The notes below the pieces were generated by a model. It was not told where the DNA came from. It worked only from the letters and a program-made list of their open reading frames with translations, and made no database searches. From Psilocybe cubensis (Eukaryota): a stretch of DNA of 64,000 nt. The translations under genes were made by a program, and so were the position numbers. The stretch is taken from positions 434,001 to 498,000 of the forward strand of contig CM039003.1 in NCBI GenBank assembly GCA_017499595.2, in the 5' to 3' direction. Below, in pieces: positions 51,120-64,000 of this stretch; the first letter of the stretch is position 1, and each line of letters opens with the position of its first letter.

Positions 51120-51735
51120 TTAGCTTTTATATAGAGTTGAAATTTGTAGTGAGGAAATTTATTGGCATTCGAAGTAAACTTGTACTGTATAGACCAAGTA
51201 GACGACAATAAGATACTGGCTTTTTGCCACATGCAAAATTTTATGTGTTGACGATAATGTGGTACACGCAACATTTATAATCTGTATTGTATATTATGCC
51301 ATATGCAGGAGTTTAGCTGGACACTCAAATATTGTCTCATGCCACATTCTGTGGTTAACCAAGTTATATGGTGTATGCCACATTTTCGAGGTTAGGAAAG
51401 ATTTCTGGCATATGCCTGAGTTTAGCCACACGACCGTTCTCTCTTCATTTCTGTATTTCATCTGAATTTGATGAAGTCCATCGGCAAATGCCAGCCGGTA
51501 ACGCGGCATTTTGTTTCACTATCCGGGACATTCGTACCGCCTCACCACCACGGTTCCAGGCCATTGACAGCCTACCGCGTCGCGCAATATGGAGAATTTG
51601 AGGACTCCTTCGACGAAGGATACGATGCCGACGACGAAATGTAGGAATTAGCTTACCATGCATGGAGGGACACGTGAAATTGTTACCTGTAATAGTTGAA
51701 AAATCCAGTAATTGTTGGACATATTCCGCTACGGG

Positions 51736-52800
51736 ACACATTTCGTGTCTCTCACACAAATTCCGGTGTACGAAGAATTGTGACTCCAACACCAAATCCT
51801 GGCGCACGAAAGATTGTGAGTCCCTCACCAAATTCTCGCGCTCACCACATTTCGCGGCTCTCACACAAATTCCGGTGCACGAAACATTGTGAGTCCTTCA
51901 CACACATTCTGGCGCTCACCACATTTCACAGCTCTCACACTAACTCAGGTGCATCCCTCACACAAATTCTGGTGCTCACCACATTTCGAGTCCCTTGCAC
52001 AAATTCTGGCACTCCGCTCTTTTCGAGTCCCTCATACAAATTCCGCTGCGTGACACATTTCGAGTCCCCTCACACAGACTCTGGAACTCCCCACATTTCA
52101 CGTCCCTCACACAAATCCCGGTGCACGAAACATTGTGAGTCCTTCACACAAATTCTGGCACTCACCACATTTCAATTCCCTCACACAAACTCAGGGGCAT
52201 CCCTCACAGCGTCCCCTCACAAATTCCACTGCACAACACATTTCGTGTCTCTCACACATATTCTGGTGCACGAAACATTGTGAGTCCCTCACCAAATTCT
52301 CGCGCTCACCACATTTCGCGGCTCTCACACAAATTCCGGTGCACGAAACATTGTGAGTCCTTCACACACATTCTGGCGCTCACCACATTTCACAGCTCTC
52401 ACACTAACTCAGGTGCATCCCTCACACAAATTCTGGCGCTCACCACATTTCGAGTCCCTCGCACAAATTCTGGCACTCCGCTCTTTTCGAGTCCCTCATA
52501 CAAATTCCGCTGCGTGACACATTTCGAGTCCCTCATACAGATTCTGGAACTCCCCACATTTCGCGTCCCTCACACAAATCCCGGTGCACGAAACATTGTG
52601 AGTCCTTCACACAAATTCTGGCACTCACCACATTTCGATTCCCTCACACAAACTCAGGGGCATCCCTCACAGCGTCCTCTCACAAATTCCACTGCGCGAC
52701 ACATTTCGTGTCTCTCACACATATTCTGGTGCACGAAACATTGTGAGTCCCTCACCAAATTCTCGAGCTCACCACAGTTCGAGTCCCTGACCTGACTTCG
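51736..52800. repeat. 37-bp minisatellite with ~464-bp higher-order repeat (right subterminal array)
   Basis: Consensus ACATTTCGAGTCCCTCACACAAATTCTGG(C/T)GC(T/A)C...; anchor TTGTGAGTCCCTCACCAAATTCTCG at 51814, 52278 and 52741. Confidence 0.93.
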
Positions 52801-53096
52801 GGTGCACGTAACATCTAGGGTCGTCCTCAGCAATTTCGGCTGTGCCCAGAAATTTTAACCTTCCGAGACCATGGCAGTGTTGTCTTGCTTGATATCAAAC
52901 TATGACAACATTTATTGAGCCCACATGTAATGAGGCCCATTCCATGCCATACAGCAGCCCGGGAGTGGATCAACAAGCTTATCATAGAATGTTTCAGCAG
53001 ATTAAATTGGAAATGCGGTAGGTGCGGACATTTGAGTGATAAATTATGTTTGCCGTGAGCAAGATATTTAGGTCTTGATGACTGTTTTAGGAAGAT

Positions 53097-54105: not shown

Positions 54106-56304
54106 ATGAGGTTCAATACCATATATCTGACAGCCGTCTCATTATGTTGTGGGGGAGCTTTCGCCGGCCAAGTTCCAATTATTGAAGGGGTTCTTGGTGG
54201 TGTTCCCAGCACACCGCCGTTGACCTTCAAACACGCTTCTACATCGGCAACCACTCCAGGGAAGCTTCGATTGGTTGAAAACTCTGGAATATGTGGTCAG
54301 TAGCCGTCTCAGTTGCTTTATCACTCTATAAACTTTCCTCCCTCCAGAAACTACACCTGGCGTTTTCCAAGCTTCCGGGTATGGTGACTTAACGTCAACA
54401 GAAAGCATCTGGTAGGCTTGATTAACTAATTTTGGTTTTCGTTCACTCGACTGAGATTTTCTTGCACAACATAGGTTCTGGTTCTTTGCAGCTCGCAAAA
54501 ATCCGGATACAGCGCCTCTTGCGCTGTGGTTCAATGGCGGTGTCCGTCTCGCTATTGTCTTTAATGTGCACGAATCTGACTCGGTAATAGCCCGGGAGCT
54601 CCAGCATGATTGGACTTTTCCAAGAACATGGTCCTTGTCGAATTACTAATGACAGCACATCGGTTACTCTCAACCCGTTTTCATGGAATAACAAAGCCAA
54701 TGTGCTATACATTGATCAACCCGTTGGAGTAGGGTTCTCTCATGGAGATCTTAAAGTTGGGACATCACAGCAGGCTGCTTCCGATATCTGGACCTTTATG
54801 CAGATGTTCCTCTCAGACTCCAGGTTTTCAAAGTACCAGGCCAATAACCTGGCTATCTGGACGGAATCGTTCGTGTCCACCCAAATTTATCCCAAATGCT
54901 TTGAACTGATTACATCGATCAACTTGAATTAGATACGGCGGTCACTATGGTCCTACATTTGCTTCGTAAGAGGCTAAATTCTCTAATGTAATATTTTATA
55001 CCGCTGATTAACCATGAGTGCAGATTCTTTCTTTCTCAGAATGCGGCCATTGACGCCGGCACTGTTTCTGGCTTGAAGTTGAATCTCAAAGTTCTGGGAG
55101 TCGGAGATGGACTTACGGTGAGTACCGAAATCGACGAATTGTTACACAAGTTTTACCTCAGGATTGACTGCTTGTACATAGGATCCGTTGACACAGTACC
55201 CCGGCTATATCTCATACGCCGCAAGTAATCCTTATCACGCGTTAGTCTCTACTTCAGCCATCTCCAAGGCAAATACTTCCTGGTCATCCTCGACTGGATG
55301 CAAATCCCAGGTAAGATATTGATTAAGTTGATAGTGTTCAGGCTGATTTTTTATCATTGTCTTCTAGATCACGTCCTGTAACAATGGCGGATCCAACTCC
55401 GTCTGTTCGAAAGCTCAAAGTTTCTGCAATAACAACATCTTGTCACCTCTAGCGGGAAATTTTGATGTACGAATATGTTCTAACTTTCTTGTTGACTGTG
55501 CTGATATTAGATGCTTGCAAGGTATACTACGTTCCAACAAGGAACCCTGACCCATACCCTCCCGATCTTACTAATTATCTCGCTTCTATCGCAAGCAAGA
55601 TCGGCGCAGAGGCAACTTGGGAGGAAACAAATGAGAATGTGTATTCCAATTTTGCGGCAACCGGCAAGTTTACAAAGCAATATCCTACGTCTACGTTTCT
55701 TACTTTCATCTAAAGGCGATTGGATGAGAAATTCTCGCCCTGACTTGGAGACTGTCATTAACGCCGGGGTAAGCCCCTATCACCTTCAGGTTCTCGAGTA
55801 ATAACCAGCTCTTATTTCAATGACAGGTACGAACCATCGTTTATGATGGTGATGCGGTGAGTTTGATAGTCGAAGCATCAAACCCCTAATAACGAAGATG
55901 CTTCATAACGTTCAGGACTATATTCTGAATTTCAACGGAGTGGAAGCAATGGTAACATGGACTTATTTTTTAGACTTCTCTGAGCTTACATTTGACTCTT
56001 CCAAACTCAGGTCAACGCGCTCGACACCCAATTTACGACTTTATTCAAGCAGCAGCAATTCCAGACGTACACAGTTGCTGGACAGACAGCTGGGCAATTC
56101 AAGAATGCTGGTCTTTTCTCTTATGTTCGCATTTTTGGCGCTGGCCACGAGGTACCTGCGTACAAGGTGAGTGTCCTACCTATGATGAGATTCATACTCT
56201 TTTGATAATCGTTCTTCATAAAGTTTGGAACGCTAGCTTATGGACAGGCAGCCGCTCAAATGTTCACCCAAATAATGGCTAACCAATCACTTTCATCGAC
56301 ATAA
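54106..56304 (+). CDS. Secreted serine carboxypeptidase, peptidase S10 (copy 2)
   Basis: Signal peptide, [56 protein letters not shown]; stop TAA 56302-56304. Confidence 0.93.
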
Positions 56305-56307
56305 TTG

Positions 56308-56480
56308 TGTTAGAGTTCCCTCTAACGTAGACACACACACGTGCCTGTAGTCACATATCACACAGTATTTGTAGACACACCCGTAGCTACGTAGCCTCAG
56401 TTCCTTCTTTGTTAGCACACCCAACACGTTCTGGTCCTTCGTCTCTCTCTCCCGCCTCGTCTCCGGGTCTCCTCCTAACA
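56308..56480 (+). repeat. 5' LTR (173 bp)
   Basis: TGTTAG...CTAACA; reads identical to 62561-62733. Confidence 0.97.
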
Positions 56481-57027
56481 TCAAGAAGGAACTCTAACAC
56501 ATTCAAAACATCCTCTCTCATCGCCTTTTGGCATTTCAATACCACCGTTTCCCAAACTGCCTGGACTACCTCGTTCCCCTTCGATCCTGCCCATCCAGCA
56601 GGATATCGAAGCCTGTACCGACACTTGTGACCGCTACTCTTGGCAATTATTTTTTTTGCAAAGAGACCTCTTGTTGCACGAAGAAACCCTGCGTATTGCT
56701 TCCAACCAGGGTGCATCTTTTGATACCCTTCGGCGACTTACTGCTGCTGTTATAGACTGTCAACGGTCAATCTCACATACCAGAGACCTTCTCGCTTCCG
56801 CTGAAAGACAGTTGCGTTACCTACACGACCAGGCTGATCGCGTTCGCGACCTACAAGATTGTCTGGCTACTCTGTCTCGCCGCATTGATAATCTGGCTTT
56901 TACCACCTCTCTTAGCCCTGCTATTTTGTCTGGACTTCACGCCCGCCTTGACGATATTCTCAGCTCTCCTCTCTTCTCCAGGTCCTCTACCCCAGACAGC
57001 TTACCTGACCTTGAACCCTCCGATTAG
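56479..57027 (+). CDS. ORF0: AUG-less coiled-coil ORF upstream of gag
   Basis: Stop-free frame of 182 sense codons with heptad-like LLASAERQLRYLHDQADRVRDLQDCLATLSRRIDNL; no ATG. Confidence 0.45.
   Translation, partial: HQEGTLTHSKHPLSSPFGISIPPFPKLPGLPRSPSILPIQQDIEACTDTCDRYSWQLFFLQRDLLLHEETLRIASNQGASFDTLRRLTAAVIDCQRSISHTRDLLASAERQLRYLHDQADRVRDLQDCLATLSRRIDNLAFTTSLSPAILSGLHARLDDILSSPLFSRSSTPDSLPDLEPSD
56483..56493 (+). promoter_or_regulatory. Primer-binding site, self-priming type
   Basis: AAGAAGGAACT is complementary to AGTTCCTTCTT at 56399-56409 in the LTR; no TGG tRNA-type start. Confidence 0.7.
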
Positions 57028-57123
57028 AAGCGCATATATTCACCCTTTTGGCGCATACACCCACCCTCTCTGTTTTTTTCTCTTTCCTTTTTTTAATTCG
57101 CTTCTCGCTTATCGTTTGCACTC

Positions 57124-58308
57124 ATGCCTCCCGGAAAAAGTAAAGGTCGTTCGGTCTCCCCCCGTCGTGGTCGTGACGGTAGTGATGACGACACTGTGTC
57201 CCGAATTGACCCTGCCATTATCGCTCTCATTAAGGCTAGCCAGGAATCCAATAAAGAAACTATGAAAGATATTCTCGAACTGTCGCGTATACAAGCCGAA
57301 ACTATGTTCAAATCATTCCTCGCGTTACCCCAACTCCAAACCTCTACCCACTCCTCTGCGACTACCTCTACCGCCCGCTCTGGTGATTCACGCGCTTATA
57401 AGGTGCCCTTTCCAGGTGCCTTCGACGGCTCCTCTGATACTGTCGAAGACTTGCTGGCCTCATGGCGTAACTTTTTTCACTCCGACCCCGAAGCATACAA
57501 AACCACTGATTCCAAAGTACGCACCGCTCTCAGTTCTTTCAAGACCGGCACGCCCGCTGTCTGGCGTAACCAGCTCATTGAAGAGCTAGAGTCTGGGCAA
57601 TGCGTCTTAACCAACTGGTCCGACTTTGAGGAGCGCGTGAAAGACTCCTTCCTGTTCCATTTCTCGCAACAACGCGCGGCACGCGAGATCATGTGCATCC
57701 GTCAGAACTCCACGCCCACTCAAGAGTTCATTATTATCTTCGAGAACCTTGCCTTTCGCTCCAAGTTTAACGACGAAGCGTTGATCCAATGCTTCAAAAT
57801 GGCCTTGGATAAGCGTATTATGGAGGAGATTGGACGAACACACCGTGAGATGCCCACATTCGCGGAATGGAAGAGTGCCGCAATCTTGATGGCTCACAGA
57901 CTGCGTGAGACTGATGCCACGGTGACTCCGGTCGTCAACACCACCGCCACCTGGCGTCCTCCCCCTTCTTTCACCTCCACCCCTTCCACTGTTCAAAAGT
58001 CTAGCAACCCCCGCCCCGCTGCTCCTGCCCCCAACGCGACTCTACCTGCAAACATCTCCGCTGCTCCGAATCGACGTGCCGCCCTGCCCTGCTTTAACTG
58101 CGGCGTATTTGGCCACTTCATGCGAGTCTGCCCCAAACCCAAAGATCTCGAATTCCAACGCAAATCACGCGCAAAACTGGAACGAGCTCGGGCCGTCCTC
58201 GAGTGCTTTGATGCTTTGCCTGATGACGACAAGCATGAGATTCGATGCGTTGATGTTGACGAAAGTGCCTTGTTTGATGATTCGGATTTTGTTTCTTGCG
58301 TCGAGTGA
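57124..58308 (+). CDS. gag: Gag (retrotransposon capsid plus CCHC zinc knuckle)
   Basis: P..FDG, A..W, W.DF capsid motifs; CFNCGVFGHFMRVC knuckle. Confidence 0.92.
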   Translation: MPPGKSKGRSVSPRRGRDGSDDDTVSRIDPAIIALIKASQESNKETMKDILELSRIQAETMFKSFLALPQLQTSTHSSATTSTARSGDSRAYKVPFPGAFDGSSDTVEDLLASWRNFFHSDPEAYKTTDSKVRTALSSFKTGTPAVWRNQLIEELESGQCVLTNWSDFEERVKDSFLFHFSQQRAAREIMCIRQNSTPTQEFIIIFENLAFRSKFNDEALIQCFKMALDKRIMEEIGRTHREMPTFAEWKSAAILMAHRLRETDATVTPVVNTTATWRPPPSFTSTPSTVQKSSNPRPAAPAPNATLPANISAAPNRRAALPCFNCGVFGHFMRVCPKPKDLEFQRKSRAKLERARAVLECFDALPDDDKHEIRCVDVDESALFDDSDFVSCVE

Positions 58309-61300
58309 GTAGTACGTCCTCGCCGCTTCTGTACAACAACCCTGTAATTACTCCCAAATTGCATGTTGCATTGTCTCCAAAATCCGTACCTCTGCCCGTG
58401 TTACCTGTTTACGCGACCCCTCAACCTTCATTATCCAATTCTGTATTGACTCCTGACAAGCCCTCTTCTTCAACAACATCACCCAACTCCGACTACCCGA
58501 CACCAACACTCCTGCCCGCGCACCCACAACCTCCAACTATGGCACCCGATTGCATTCCATATTCAGACCTCTTTTTATCCTGTCCTGAGGATGATCCACC
58601 AGAGCTGCAAGCCCCAGATGCCTCTGATGATTCGGATGAAGATTCGCCAACCAAGCCTGCTCAACAAACCTCCGCCCACGATGATGCATCTGTCTCTATG
58701 ACACACGATGCAAGTCCACCACCGGCCCCACGCGACTCTCTACTTTGCAGCCCGCCCGTCGCTGACCACACAGACTGCCCGCCTTCAATCCCTACACCTG
58801 TCCGCACCGTCCTGTGCAACTTGCGCCGATTACGCAGCACGCCTTGGCGAACCGAGAGCCTGCTCAAATCCTGGGCCCCAAAGGAGCGTTGGGACGACAT
58901 TGACGATGATCTGATTGCTGCTCTTTGCGATCTCCCCTGGACCGACGCCGCCAAAGTCCTCCAGCAGCTCAAGAAGCCCCGCGACTACATCTCCCGCATG
59001 GGGAGTAAATGCCTTGACATTCCAATGTCGGCTGCACCCCCAGGCTCGACCTCTTTGGTGTCGCTGAAAGCGCTCTTAGACAGCGGTGCCACTGGTTGTT
59101 ACGTGCACTCCGATTTTGTCAAACTCAATGGATGGGTGACTGAGCGGCTGCCCCACCCCGTTAGCGTTTACAATGCAGACGGAACTCGCAATGCCAACGG
59201 TGCTATCACAGATGTTGTTTACCTTGTCATCCGCATTGAAAACCATGTTGAGCGACTCCGCCTTTCAGTCACCAACACGGGATCATCTTCCCTCATCCTC
59301 GGGCACTCCTGGCTCTGGTTCCATAATCCGCTTGTTGACTGGCGAGAGGCCAAGCTCTGCTTTGCACGCTGCCCCACGTCCTGTGGTGCTGACGTGCTGC
59401 CGACTTCGCACCCTGATGGCGAAACCGTGAATGTTTGCCGCGAAGGACCCCAGCTCCGTGAAGACGACATCTTTGATGACAGCCCGGGCCCCTTCACGCC
59501 GGTCTCTGCTGCGGAATGGGCTGACGCCTTTGCTGGTGAACTTGCCGATGGTGAATCGATGTGCGCGGTTGACCTCAATGAGTTCACGTCCGAACAAGTC
59601 CATGGCTCATGCGACCACCGCATTTCTCACTTTTTGCGAACTCAACGTGAAGCAGCTTCATATCCCGACCGCTACCTGAAGGAATTTGCACCTGTTTTCT
59701 CCAAAGAGGAGTTTGACGAGCTCCCACCCCGTCGCCCATGGGATCATGCTATTAACCTGAAACCAGATGCAAAGTCGTTCAAAGCAAAGCCGTACCGTCT
59801 GTCGCCCGCTGAAACCTCGAAGGTCAAGGAATGGATAGAAGAGGAAAAACGCACTGGCCGTATACGGGACTCCATCTCTCCCTATGCCGCCCCTTTCTTC
59901 TTCATCCAGAAAAAGGATGGCTCACTGCGCCCTGTGCAAGACTACCGACGCCTGAACGATATCACGATCAAGAACCGCTATCCATTGCCGCTCATCTCTG
60001 ACCTCATGGACAAGCTTAAAGGCGCGAAAGTATTCACCAAACTTGACGTCCGCTGGGGTTTCAATAACATTCGTATCAGGGAAGGCGATGAGCACAAGGC
60101 TGCCTTTATCACGGAGTTTGGACTTTTTGAGCCTCTTGTAATGTTCTTTGGATTGACAAACTCACCAGCTACCTTCCAGAATATGATGAACGATCTGTTC
60201 AAGGATCTCATTGCTGGCGGCCATGTCGTGATATATATGGATGACATCCTCATCTTCACTGATGATGTCCAGTCCCATCGACATCTTGTCCGCAATGTCT
60301 TGCAGATTCTGGAGGACAACAAGCTTTATCTGCGGCCAGAAAAGTGCTGTTTTGAGCAGGACCGTGTGGAATACTTGGGCGTCATTGTCGGCCACGGGAA
60401 AATGTCCATGGATCCCAAGAAAGTTGACGCTATCACCTCTTGGCCAATCCCGCGCTGTCGTAAGGACGTCCAACAGTTCCTCGGTTTCGTCAACTTCTAC
60501 CGTAGGTTTATCAAGAACTTCTCCCGCATTGCCGCTCCCCTGCATGCCCTGGGTGGTTCGGCGCCTTGGGTATGGGACAATTTGTCAACATCCGCCTTCA
60601 ACGAGCTCAAATCCGCCTGCGCTTCACACCCGGTGCTACTTCTTCCCCGCGACGGTGCCCCATTCCGCATAGAGGCAGACAGCTCTGGATACGCAACCGG
60701 CGCGGTGCTCAGCCAATTTGTTGACAATTCCTGGCAACCGGTCGCGTTTGCTTCAAAAGCCCTCAGTCCCGTTGAGCGCAACTACGAGATACATGACCGC
60801 GAACTACTGTCAATCATGAGGTCTCTCGATGACTGGCGACGCTACCTCCACGGCTCCGATTCTCCTGTTGAGATCCACACCGATCACAAGAACCTTCAGT
60901 ATTTCATGACCGCTCAGAAATTGAACCGTCGTCAGGCTCGCTGGTCCCTGCAGCTCGCTGAATTCGATTTCGTACTCGTCCACAAGCCAGGCCCGACCAT
61001 GATCTGCGCAGACTCGTTGTCCCGCCGCCCCGACTACGATAAAGGTGTTGGCGACAACGAAAACGTCACCTTACTGCGCCCAGAACACATTCGACGTACT
61101 GCTGAATGCTCAATTGGGGATGACCCCGTCCTGGCTGACATTCGAACTCACCAGCACCAAATCACTGAAATGTGGGAAAAGCACAAGAACCTGCCTGGCT
61201 GGTCCCTCCACGACGGCTTGCTTTCATGGCATAACCGAATCTTTGTGCCAAACAAAGGCAACTTGCGTCAACGAATACTCGCCGACTGTCATGATCACCA

Positions 61301-62549
61301 ATCCGTAGGCCACCCTGGCCGGATGAAGACCATGGAACTCGTCCTGCGCGACTATTGGTGGCCGTCACTATCAAAAGACGCGAAGCGTTACGTTGATGGA
61401 TGCCCCACCTGTCAATCAACTAAGCCTCTGAGGATGGCGCCCGCGGGCCTACTGACCCCCAACGAAATCCCTTCCTCCAATTGGGAGATCATTTCCTGTG
61501 ATCTCATCGTGGACTTACCTAAATCTCGCGGCTTCGATTCGATCTTTGTCGTCGTCGATAGACTCTCAAAAATGGTTCGTATCATCCCATGCAAAAAGTC
61601 AATCACTTCTGAGGGTCTCGCGCGCCTCTTCCGCGACCATGTCTGGAAAGACTTCGGACTGCCACGACGCATCATCTCCGACCGTGGTTCAATCTTCCTG
61701 TCAAACTTTACTCGGGCCCTCAACGACCTGCTAGGCATTTCACAGAACGCGTCCACCGCATTTCGACCTCAAACAGACGGACAAACTGAGCGCGTCAATC
61801 AAGAAATCGAACAATACCTACGGATCTTTGTGAATAACAGGCAAAATGATTGGGTGGAATGGCTTGCATGCGCCGAATTTGCTATCAACAATAAGATTCA
61901 CTCGTCCACTGGCTTCTCGCCCTTCTTCCTAAACTATGGCTCCAACCCCCGCCGAACCCTGCAACCCGCACGCCTCTCGGACGACCGTGTCCCCAAAGCT
62001 CTTGAATTCGCCTCTCAAATGGATTCCCTCGCGAAGGAATCCGCTTCAGCGCTAAACCTCGCCGCTGATGCAATGAAGCGATCCTATGACACCTCTCACC
62101 GCGCTCCACCCGTCTTCAATGTTGGCGACATGGTGATGCTCAGCGCCTCCGACATCAAGTCCTCACGTCCGTCTAAAAAGCTCGATGTTAAGCGTCACGG
62201 ACCTTTTCCTGTGACGAAACGCGTTGGCATCCAGTCTTACACCCTCGACCTACCGGCCTCGTGGTCGATCCACCCTACTTTCCATGTCTCTAAACTCTCC
62301 CGTTTCATACCAGCAGAATTCGATTCCCAAACTTCACCCGCGACACCAACACCTCCCCCCGCGTTACCACCCCCAGACATTGCAAGTGTGCTCGGCCACA
62401 GGGCCCTGCGCAGTGGAACACAGTTCCTCGTGCTGCTCGATGGCTGCACAGAGGAAGACGCTTCGTGGTCAAGCCACTCATCCTTCCCTAACTCTGAAGT
62501 ACTAAACAATTACATACGCCTCCACAACATCCCGGACGCCCACCTTTAA
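58281..62549 (+). CDS. pol: Pol polyprotein (protease, RT, RNase H, integrase, chromodomain), -1 frame relative to gag
   Basis: LLDSGATG, DYRRLN, YMDDILI, ADSSGYATGAVL, H-H-C-C zinc finger, SCDLI / ISDRG / DGQTERVN, GPF, HPTFHVS.L. Confidence 0.96.
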   Translation, partial: FGFCFLRRVSSTSSPLLYNNPVITPKLHVALSPKSVPLPVLPVYATPQPSLSNSVLTPDKPSSSTTSPNSDYPTPTLLPAHPQPPTMAPDCIPYSDLFLSCPEDDPPELQAPDASDDSDEDSPTKPAQQTSAHDDASVSMTHDASPPPAPRDSLLCSPPVADHTDCPPSIPTPVRTVLCNLRRLRSTPWRTESLLKSWAPKERWDDIDDDLIAALCDLPWTDAAKVLQQLKKPRDYISRMGSKCLDIPMSAAPPGSTSLVSLKALLDSGATGCYVHSDFVKLNGWVTERLPHPVSVYNADGTRNANGAITDVVYLVIRIENHVERLRLSVTNTGSSSLILGHSWLWFHNPLVDWREAKLCFARCPTSCGADVLPTSHPDGETVNVCREGPQLREDDIFDDSPGPFTPVSAAEWADAFAGELADGESMCAVDLNEFTSEQVHGSCDHRISHFLRTQREAASYPDRYLKEFAPVFSKEEFDELPPRRPWDHAINLKPDAKSFKAKPYRLSPAETSKVKEWIEEEKRTGRIRDSISPYAAPFFFIQKKDGSLRPVQDYRRLNDITIKNRYPLPLISDLMDKLKGAKVFTKLDVRWGFNNIRIREGDEHKAAFITEFGLFEPLVMFFGLTNSPATFQNMMNDLFKDLIAGGHVVIYMDDILIFTDDVQSHRHLVRNVLQILEDNKLYLRPEKCCFEQDRVEYLGVIVGHGKMSMDPKKVDAITSWPIPRCRKDVQQFLGFVNFYRRFIKNFSRIAAPLHALGGSAPWVWDNLSTSAFNELKSACASHPVLLLPRDGAPFRIEADSSGYATGAVLSQFVDNSWQPVAFASKALSPVERNYEIHDRELLSIMRSLDDWRRYLHGSDSPVEIHTDHKNLQYFMTAQKLNRRQARWSLQLAEFDFVLVHKPGPTMICADSLSRRPDYDKGVGDNENVTLLRPEHIRRTAECSIGDDPVLADIRTHQHQITEMWEKHKNLPGWSLHDGLLSWHNRIFVPNKGNLRQRILADCHDHQSVGHPGRMKTMELVLRDYWWPSLSKDAKRYVDGCPTCQSTKPLRMAPAGLLTPNEIPSSNWEIISCDLIVDLPKSRGFDSIFVVVDRLSKMVRIIPCKKSITSEGLARLFRDHVWKDFGLPRRIISDRGSIFLSNFTRALNDLLGISQNASTAFRPQTDGQTERVNQEIEQYLRIFVNNRQNDWVEWLACAEFAINNKIHSSTGFSPFFLNYGSNPRRTLQPARLSDDRVPKALEFASQMDSLAKESASALNLAADAMKRSYDTSHRAPPVFNVGDMVMLSASDIKSSRPSKKLDVKRHGPFPVTKRVGIQSYTLDLPASWSIHPTFHVSKLSRFIPAEFDSQTSPATPTPPPALPPPDIASVLGHRALRSGTQFLVLLDGCTEEDASWSSHSSFPNSEVLNNYIRLHNIPDAHL

Positions 62550-62560
62550 GAGGGGGGTGA
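62548..62560 (+). other. Polypurine tract
   Basis: AAGAGGGGGGTGA immediately before the 3' LTR. Confidence 0.85.
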
Positions 62561-62733
62561 TGTTAGAGTTCCCTCTAACGTAGACACACACACGTGCCTG
62601 TAGTCACATATCACACAGTATTTGTAGACACACCCGTAGCTACGTAGCCTCAGTTCCTTCTTTGTTAGCACACCCAACACGTTCTGGTCCTTCGTCTCTC
62701 TCTCCCGCCTCGTCTCCGGGTCTCCTCCTAACA
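62561..62733 (+). repeat. 3' LTR (173 bp)
   Basis: Reads identical to the 5' LTR. Confidence 0.97.
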
Positions 62734-63476
62734 AATTGTTGGTGACCACGATGTAGCAACCATCTCGTTACTCAGAGCCAATAAATTTTCATGTTTGTCG
62801 GACTTCAATGTAGACATAATGCTTTGAGAAGAACTTGAGGATATGAGAGCGCTCCTGATTATTGTCAGTAAAGATGGTAGAATTTTAAAATAACTTCTAC
62901 TTATATTACTTGACAGGCACCGGCGTTGCAGGATCATAAAACCACCAAGCGATACGCTTATTATGACGCCCCGGTTCTAACAGCAAATGTATTTGAGCGG
63001 TGTACATGATGAGCTATATGATTCCAGCCGAGGCATTTGTTGTTAAACAAATGGAGCGCTCTTCATGCCGACTTAATCGAGAGAAACACGAGTCAAGATA
63101 ATGAACTGCATAGGCTAGCATCTTATTTCTGTTCAATCGCTTCATAGTAGGCCACAGTAGTATGTTTTAACATATTAGAATTGCGCTCGCTCTGAATCTC
63201 TTCTATAGTGCCTGCAAGGCCAACCGTACACTCAACAAAATCTTTAGAAAGGAGATCGTTTCGGTCGCGATGGCAATCGGCTTCAATGAATTTCCATACG
63301 GACATTATAAATATCTTTACGGGCAATATACGCCTCAGTTTTGTTAAATTCCTAATTGAAAGTATGTTTGAAAGTCTATAAAGTAAAATTAGAATAGTGA
63401 AGAAAGGAATATAAACTGGCAAAAAACACGAACAAGGTATATCCTTTGGACAGCATACCCTTCAGCAAACTCGACC

Positions 63477-64000
63477 ATGCAATTAAAGCTTGCCGTAATT
63501 GCTGCAATTCTATATATAACTAGTGCCACTCGTGGTGGTCAAGTACCTGTCGTGGGCGGAGTCATTGGAGGGGTTCCATCCCCTATACGTACAACAAAAG
63601 AGTTTATCGCCTCGCCTCAAACAATAAGAAATGTGACGACCCCTGGTAAACTAAGGGTTGTCGAAAACTCAGGCGTATGCGGTAAGATTCAGATGCAGAA
63701 CTTACTGGGTTTTAAAACCATATGCTAACACAACATTAGAAACAACCCCCGGAATCTATCAGGCATCAGGATATGGAGACCTAACATCTACTGAGAGCAT
63801 CTGGTACATTTTTCTAGTGCATCACCTACTCATATGTAATGATTAATACGATTTTATAGGTTCTGGTTTTTCGCTTCTCGCAAGAATCCTGAAAATGCCC
63901 CTCTTGCGCTGTGGTTCAATGGAGGGGTAAGTCAGCTTTTGCGGGCGTGTACTGAGCATCACTTAAGCTGACACGAGAAAATTAAAAGCCTGGCAGCTCA
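63477..64000 (+). CDS. Serine carboxypeptidase S10 (copy 3), 5' part only
   Basis: Signal peptide, [50 protein letters not shown]; same intron positions as copies 1 and 2; runs off the window. Confidence 0.9.

Follow-up and report, generated by a model that had tools for sequence, protein, structure and literature searches.

Can a retrotransposon carry a gene in a leader that offers ribosomes no AUG? This question is raised by a stretch of 64,000 nucleotides (nt) from Psilocybe cubensis (assembly GCA_017499595.2, contig CM039003.1, positions 434,001 to 498,000 of the forward strand), which is called the window here and is numbered from its first letter. A complete long terminal repeat (LTR) retrotransposon of the Ty3/gypsy group occupies positions 56308-62733 on the + strand. 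Inside it, between the 5' LTR and gag, is ORF0, an open reading frame (ORF) of 182 codons without an ATG. ORF0 is probably protein-coding. The odds are somewhat better than even that it is a real, separate accessory cistron, which would be started at a near-cognate codon, most likely the CTG at 56557, with leaky scanning supplying gag. The parts of the element that bear on this are as follows.

56308-56480, + strand: 5' LTR of 173 bp with TG...CA ends; no ATG on the + strand; 100% identity with 62561-62733.
56479-57027, + strand: ORF0, read from stop to stop, 182 codons plus TAG; ATG absent in all frames.
56557-56559, + strand: CTG, codon 27 of ORF0, with A at -3 and C at +4; best candidate for a non-AUG start.
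56587-56589, + strand: CTG, codon 37, with A at -3 and C at +4; second candidate, with less support.
56596-57015, + strand: conserved core of ORF0, residues 40-179, with three predicted helices and the C-terminal motif SR.STPDSLP.LE (from alignment, AlphaFold2, heptads, and periodicity).
57028-57123, + strand: pyrimidine-rich spacer of 96 nt from the ORF0 stop to the gag ATG, containing an in-frame TAA at 57094-57096.
57124-58308, + strand: gag, 394 amino acids, with a Retrotrans_gag domain and a CCHC knuckle (Pfam); C at -3 of its ATG.

A preliminary description of this DNA had claimed that no ATG occurs between the LTR and gag and that one frame stays open for 182 codons and ends in PDLEPSD. 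Both claims are borne out, and the ATG-free interval is even longer, running on the + strand from 56278 to 57123 and spanning the 5' LTR as well as the 643-nt leader (56481-57123). The flanking ATGs are at 56275 and at the gag start, 57124. The gap of 849 nt between them is the longest ATG-free stretch in the element; the runner-up has 221 nt. When the leader is resampled by a first-order Markov model, 5.7 ATGs are expected and none is obtained with P = 0.0034; for the LTR and leader together the expectation is 6.0 and P = 0.0025. The frame of ORF0 is limited by TAA at 56476-56478, within the LTR end, and TAG at 57025-57027. In the resampled leaders the longest open frame has a mean length of 96 codons and reaches at least 182 codons with P = 0.008. 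Note that the window has one longer ATG-free stretch on the + strand, of 1209 nt (51662-52870), in which the same peptide-like units recur across overlapping open frames; this suggests an array of tandem repeats, not a gene or a leader.

Evidence for a protein comes from a paralogue. In a phmmer search of ORF0 against 1.84 billion representative proteins, three matches have E <= 0.001 (P0005, P0006, and P0007). P0006 (E = 1e-33) is a protein of 203 amino acids on another contig, from P. cubensis according to its source, where it is named JR316_0012456. P0007 (E = 1.1e-05) is a weak match to a repeat protein and was discounted. P0006 aligns to ORF0 from residue 12 to the last residue, 182, with 80 of 167 columns identical (48%) and a single in-frame gap of exactly four residues. 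The blocks Q.DI..CTD.CDR..W.LF.LQ.DLL.HE, AVIDC, and SR.STPDSLP.LE are kept in both. Both proteins terminate seven residues after LP.LE, and neither has an internal Met; P0006 is Met-free across the 202 residues after its initiator. The accessory coding frame first proposed from the open frame is supported by this paralogue, which has no internal Met and stops at the same position, and the frame conservation, free of Met and stops, that had been suggested as a check holds in it at the protein level.

How much of this could arise by neutral drift was estimated by simulation from the ORF0 DNA, with the base composition of the leader, a transition bias of 2, and divergence tuned to 79.4 identical columns against the 80 observed. 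The 20,000 runs included substitutions only, and adding insertions and deletions (indels) would lower the chances further. The frame remained free of stops in 2.5% of the runs and free of both stops and Met in 0.94%. The replacements are also conservative: the mean BLOSUM62 score at mismatched columns is -0.55, compared with -1.005 +/- 0.158 in the simulation, where 1 of 497 stop-free runs reaches -0.55 (P = 0.002). Leu is conserved in 21 of 28 columns, with 54% expected. Within ORF0 itself, residues 40-182 have heterogeneous base usage among codon positions (chi2 = 19.4, p = 0.0036). Three windows in gag and pol give chi2 values of 16-27, and the LTR and two flanking windows give 4.6-5.0; a third flanking window, starting at 55300, gives 26 and is taken to be a host exon. 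By a codon-usage score trained on gag and pol, the ORF0 frame is the best of six. Judged from its sequence, ORF0 is an upstream accessory ORF, that is, a conserved open frame in the sense direction between the 5' LTR and gag.

The protein is confidently predicted to form a helical hairpin. AlphaFold2, run with the two sequences, models helices at residues 37-76, 81-143, and 147-161; its predicted local distance difference test score is 89-97 in ten-residue blocks over residues 41-110, with a mean of 72.9 and both tails below 50. The amphipathic heptad character noticed earlier is confirmed for the 63-residue helix 81-143, where the hydrophobic moment at a 3.5-residue period is 1.34 compared with 0.37 in shuffled sequences (0 of 5000 shuffles reach it) and 14 of 18 a/d positions are hydrophobic. 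In helix 37-76, 10 of 11 a/d positions are hydrophobic (shuffle P = 0.07). The protein, of about 150 residues, would begin with a proline-rich head, continue as a long antiparallel hairpin with heptads, and end in an acidic Ser/Thr/Pro tail with STPDSLP.LE; three of its cysteines are conserved. ORF0 has no Pfam family at the cut-off, only sub-threshold coiled-coil noise. A sequence search of the PDB gave no match at E <= 0.1 and nothing under E = 0.25, and the ESM Atlas search gave no usable match. Foldseek against the PDB returned nothing at E <= 0.001 (best E = 0.13), and what it matched were helical hairpins of a generic kind, among them ESCRT-III/Vipp1 and BAR-like chains. Because of the heptad hairpin, the three conserved cysteines, and the conserved acidic tail, ORF0 may be an oligomerising adaptor that acts through its coiled coil with Gag or the genomic RNA. 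A prediction of the ORF0-Gag complex scored 0.03 (mark 0.34); it was run without controls and counts neither for nor against this role.

Where the transcript begins is suggested by two short complementary segments, one in the LTR and one just behind it in the position of a primer-binding site (PBS).

56399-56409, + strand: AGTTCCTTCTT, within the LTR; putative transcript 5' end and self-primer, complementary at 11 of 11 nt to 56483-56493.
56483-56493, + strand: AAGAAGGAACT, PBS-like, 2 nt past the LTR, overlapping ORF0 codons 2-5; complementary to 56399-56409.

In the self-priming mechanism of Tf1 and Tj1, the PBS is complementary to the 5' end of the element mRNA (PMC4600332). The PBS-like stretch here, 2 nt behind the LTR, resembles that of these fission yeast elements in complementing an 11-nt LTR stretch that could be the mRNA 5' end, and pol of the P. 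cubensis element has a Tf2-type SH3 domain. From the sequence, the layout looks like self-priming of the Tf1/Tj1 type rather than a tRNA primer site; the window holds no tRNA gene with which the PBS could be compared. A further pairing, with no evident relation to the Tf1/Tj1 mechanism, joins the PBS region to the very start of the LTR (56484-56501 with 56306-56323, 17 of 18 nt, 94%). A TATTTG motif precedes 56399 by about 33 nt. The self-priming layout predicts that transcription would start near 56399, giving a 5' leader of 725 nt free of AUG. The PBS stretch appears to be conserved as DNA and not as ORF0 protein, because P0006 retains it in another frame, as NIKKEL; the first 11 codons of ORF0, which overlap the PBS, are not conserved as protein.

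On a transcript borne by the element, ORF0 would need a non-AUG start, because no ATG exists from the LTR to gag and TAA at 56476-56478 closes the frame upstream. Two in-frame CTG codons with A at -3, at 56557 and 56587, had been put forward as starts. Both are present, and they fare differently: the first is Leu27, and this Leu and the Lys before it are kept in P0006, while the second aligns with a Ser. Other in-frame near-cognate codons are ATT at 56533 and ATA at 56539, both within the four residues absent from P0006, and ATC at 56584; later ones lie within the conserved core. CTG 56557 is therefore favoured, as the first in-frame near-cognate codon whose residue, a Leu after a Lys, is kept in P0006. 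From the anatomy of the leader and the established scanning model we infer the translation of ORF0 and its start site. The smaller share of the scanning ribosomes would begin translating ORF0 at a near-cognate codon; if this is CTG 56557, the most likely one, the product would have 156 residues. The majority would pass the codon by and move on along the AUG-free leader until they reach the AUG of gag. Those that translate ORF0 would stop 96 nt ahead of gag and would probably be lost to it. That the frame lacks Met codons and out-of-frame ATGs could then reflect the cost of this arrangement, since any AUG would intercept ribosomes bound for gag. The context of the gag ATG is itself weak by the usual rules, with C at -3 and C at +4 (57121-57127); downstream of it, ATG next occurs out of frame at 57185 and then in frame at 57262.

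Several observations weigh against this account. Both CTG codons have C at +4. The earliest in-frame near-cognate codon is at 56533, yet the in-frame similarity to P0006 starts at residue 12. Given the protein sequence, avoidance of ATG is weak (P = 0.10 with the codon usage of gag and pol, 0.03 with that of ORF0 itself). The codon-usage log-odds of ORF0, 0.05-0.07, are far under the 0.24-0.29 of gag and pol. In a second phase 169 codons (56756-57265) are free of stops, which shows that the pyrimidine-rich composition lets long frames stay open. P0006 is one diverged homologue, known as protein only, and it is in the database because it was called as an open frame, which is an ascertainment bias. 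Among the 1.84 billion representatives, no homologue was found outside two P. cubensis clusters, those of P0005 and P0006. A profile search for relatives of ORF0 gave no further members, and DNA of relatives was found neither in two metagenome scans, one with the ORF0 profile and one with the gag profile, nor in two scans of viral contigs. Finally, the ATG with which P0006 is modelled to start falls in sequence derived from an LTR, 35 residues before the aligned part.

This last point leads to an alternative that seems rather unlikely, in which ORF0 is a real gene started by an AUG, either in the LTR of the sister family or on transcripts that read in from the host. The family in the window would have lost access to the AUG and would make no ORF0 protein, relying on other copies or doing without. 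Upstream of its alignment with ORF0, P0006 reads GGSPPNIKKEL, which corresponds to the LTR end of the present element and its next bases in a different frame, so P0006 appears to lie directly behind an LTR end and PBS, and its modelled frame runs through both. The ATG of the model is 79 nt ahead of its LTR end. The two elements differ at the LTR end and PBS by a frame shift: in the window copy the GGSPPNIKKEL frame meets TAA at 56495-56497. When the LTRs of the two families are translated, their similarity is confined to the last few codons. The 35 upstream residues of P0006 have no in-frame likeness except in the LTR end and PBS, which are conserved as DNA. The absence of internal Met from its 202 residues fits a scanned, AUG-free leader in that family too, and under established scanning rules a transcribed AUG followed by an ORF of 200 codons would largely block gag. 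Because the extension is unconserved, the 202 residues are Met-free, and a used AUG would choke gag, an AUG start is less likely even in the P0006 family.

Read-in from the host is suggested by three public protein models, P0003-P0005, which link host exons to ORF0 from residue 63. In P0003 and P0005 a SERF-like host exon (Pfam SERF-like_N, E = 0.0055, under the cut-off) is fused to ORF0 from residue 62/63 at 99-100% identity, and P0003 contains LEFPLT, which is what the opening bases of the LTR encode. All three models join host exons to the final 120 residues of ORF0, using an acceptor after a T-run at about 56650-56665, and omit the conserved residues 40-62. The lack of an ATG has apparently led annotation to build chimeras here, and the omission of conserved residues marks the models as probable gene-caller artefacts. 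A leader intron ending at the acceptor of these models (about 56665) was also considered and was rejected, as the conserved residues 40-62 would fall inside it. The UniRef name of P0003, 'BLOC-1-related complex subunit 5', was rejected for want of Pfam support.

Nor is the window copy a decayed relic. In two other public runs labelled P. cubensis, contigs cross the insertion site without the element (56303-56308 joined to 62733-62738). In the run that holds the element, an internal contig of 6127 nt has a depth of 84.7 compared with 81.8 in the flank, about a single copy, and it has 0 differences from the window over 56464-57400. The identical internal sequence in an empty-site run is presumably located elsewhere in the genome. 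The insertion sites of near-identical copies therefore vary from strain to strain, and the AUG-less form must have transposed recently. With identical LTRs and no defect, the AUG-less copy is intact and recently mobile, not decayed. The preliminary description had allowed that an ATG in other copies would make its absence here a mutation of one copy. This objection has some force, since such an ATG does begin the P0006 model; it is LTR-derived and in a frame that TAA closes here, and the window copy is itself intact and recently mobile. In two runs presumed to be RNA, contigs cover the left flank and, in one of them, the empty site, and none falls on the element, a result with no bearing on its expression. 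The run that holds the element also has a 259-nt contig matching the gag stretch 57245-57309 with 12 differences in 65 nt. Further contigs share the LTR end (to 56480), or the LTR end and 12 nt of the PBS (to 56492), and then diverge; they point to related families or solo LTRs in P. cubensis.

It is unlikely that ORF0 is simply untranslated. By that explanation the leader, like other long leaders of retroelements, would be AUG-free since gag needs scanning, would have few stops since it is pyrimidine-rich, and would be kept for functions of RNA or DNA in cis (PBS, packaging, dimerisation), with both the open frame and the P0006 match as by-products. The second open phase of 169 codons, the low codon-usage score, the conservation of the first 11 codons as PBS DNA in a different frame, the ascertainment of P0006 as an open frame, the confinement of homologues to one species, and the lack of a family or fold match all agree with it. 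Against it stand the joint chance of 0.9% for a frame free of stops and Met at that divergence, with indels uncounted; the conservative replacements (P = 0.002), the preferential keeping of Leu, and the shared stop position; the heptad pattern that runs through 63 residues without interruption; and a codon-position periodicity like that of gag and pol. Folding of the leader RNA is also no better than that of shuffled sequences (z = -0.76; 5 of 20 shuffles are equally good), and an explanation by RNA alone is weakened because the leader is not unusually structured.

It is very unlikely that ORF0 is the N-terminal part of a longer, glyco-Gag-like Gag, joined to it by splicing or stop-codon readthrough: ORF0 and gag have a common frame, and in the Gag of Cer1 a coiled coil is described at the N-terminus where a matrix domain would otherwise stand (PMC10309623), but the in-frame stops at 57025 (TAG) and 57094 (TAA) intervene, the stop position of ORF0 is conserved in P0006, the only frame-keeping GT/AG pair seen by eye has a poor donor (GTCCTC) and would delete the C-terminal motif, the MPP start of gag is common to the P. 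cyanescens gag P0008 (44% identity), an ORF0-gag fusion is absent among the 1.84 billion representative proteins, and hhalign shows no relation between the ORF0 and gag profiles (probability 0.5%). The idea that ORF0 is a duplicated gag N-terminus was rejected on the same hhalign result.

The rest of the element has the usual anatomy of its group.

56303-56307, + strand: left copy of the target-site duplication AATTG, repeated 3' of the 3' LTR.
58281-62549, + strand: pol, with protease, reverse transcriptase, RNase H, integrase, and Tf2-type SH3 domains (Pfam); in the -1 frame, its start overlapping the 3' end of gag.
62550-62560, + strand: polypurine tract GAGGGGGGTGA, read from the sequence, preceding the 3' LTR.
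62561-62733, + strand: 3' LTR, 173 bp, identical to the 5' LTR.
62734-62738, + strand: right copy of the target-site duplication AATTG, read from the sequence.

With its LTRs, target-site duplication, and order of gag and pol domains, it is a member of Ty3/gypsy (Metaviridae). In gag the Pfam E-values are 1.1e-05 for Retrotrans_gag and 1.8e-04 for zf-CCHC. In pol the protease is at residues 261-345 (under the Pfam cut-off), RVT_1 at 542-703, RNase H at 765-895, and the integrase at 994-1163. No Pfam Chromo domain is among the 11 families listed at E <= 1. The C-terminus looks chromodomain-like by eye, and the element is not assigned to the chromoviruses. The overlap of gag and pol is 28 nt (58281-58308), and a canonical X XXY YYZ heptamer was not seen in it by eye. 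There is no second copy of the element within the window. The upstream host gene encodes a serine carboxypeptidase (Peptidase_S10, 6.3e-29, at 54591-54932), and a 78-nt repeat with 82% identity occurs on both sides of the element (54471-54548 and 63856-63933). The element may sit between two tandem paralogues, just after the apparent stop of the upstream gene (TAA 56302-56304, by eye).

Extra genes upstream of gag are found in other LTR elements. In the MDG1 group of Drosophila (412, mdg1, Stalker, and Blood), the full-length unspliced RNA carries two small sense ORFs, sORF1 and sORF2, behind the 5' LTR and ahead of gag; after long neglect, their translation is now shown by mass spectrometry and antibodies (bioRxiv 10.1101/2025.03.14.642691). 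They encode a helix-turn-helix protein of about 110 amino acids and a transmembrane FAST-like protein of about 70, and a non-AUG start is not described for them in the available portion of that preprint (bioRxiv 10.1101/2025.03.14.642691). ORF0 is likewise a sense accessory ORF between the 5' LTR and gag. While the insect elements have two such ORFs, ORF0 is single, has about 150-180 codons, is predicted to form a coiled coil, and lacks AUG. No homology of ORF0 to the MDG1 sORFs or to the additional ORFs (aORFs) of plant elements was detected in the searches, which returned only P. cubensis proteins apart from the discounted P0007.

Among plant elements, Ogre has an upstream additional ORF, ORF1. 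Lineage-restricted upstream aORFs of unknown function are reported from plant LTR elements (PMC7264820), and ORF0 of rice Retrosat2 is an upstream additional ORF (PMC3485330). The plant aORFs differ from ORF0 in belonging mostly to large elements, and absence of AUG is not reported for them.

Starts at CUG upstream of a gag AUG are a second point of comparison. For the glyco-Gag of murine leukaemia virus (MLV), a CUG ahead of the gag AUG, in a leader that lacks AUG, is the start. PEG10, a gene derived from Ty3/gypsy, also has a CUG start upstream of its gag AUG in a leader without AUG, so non-AUG starts do occur in this gene lineage (PMC2800197). The PEG10 and MLV forms are N-terminal extensions continuous with Gag. 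ORF0 differs: its near-cognate codons are in frame with gag and not continuous with it, being separated from it by the two stops and by a conserved site of termination. In fungi, the brtn gene of Boty/BcGypsy1 in Botrytis cinerea is an extra gene of a Ty3/gypsy element that was overlooked by annotation (bioRxiv 10.1101/2021.04.13.439636; PMC7264820). It is antisense and belongs to an ascomycete element, whereas ORF0 is sense, upstream of gag, and AUG-less. A literature search found no basidiomycete element with an upstream sense ORF and no LTR element with a separate AUG-less cistron, a weak negative as subscription journals were mostly uncovered.

Genes upstream of gag have recently been proved functional in insect elements (bioRxiv 10.1101/2025.03.14.642691). 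There is just short of an even chance that ORF0 founds a family of accessory proteins of mushroom-forming fungi that is expressed solely by non-AUG initiation, over about 150 codons free of AUG in all three frames, a state that would let the same scanned leader bring ribosomes to gag as well. If ORF0 is translated, the element would be a natural system for the division of ribosomes between a long ORF with a near-cognate start and a downstream AUG. It is suited to experiments because it is intact and polymorphic between strains. ORF0 would also be a concrete case of a conserved gene that annotation systematically misses and wrongly joins to host genes. Gene callers that require an ATG would be blind to such genes, and the arrangement may be widespread, and unrecorded, in the LTR elements of fungi.

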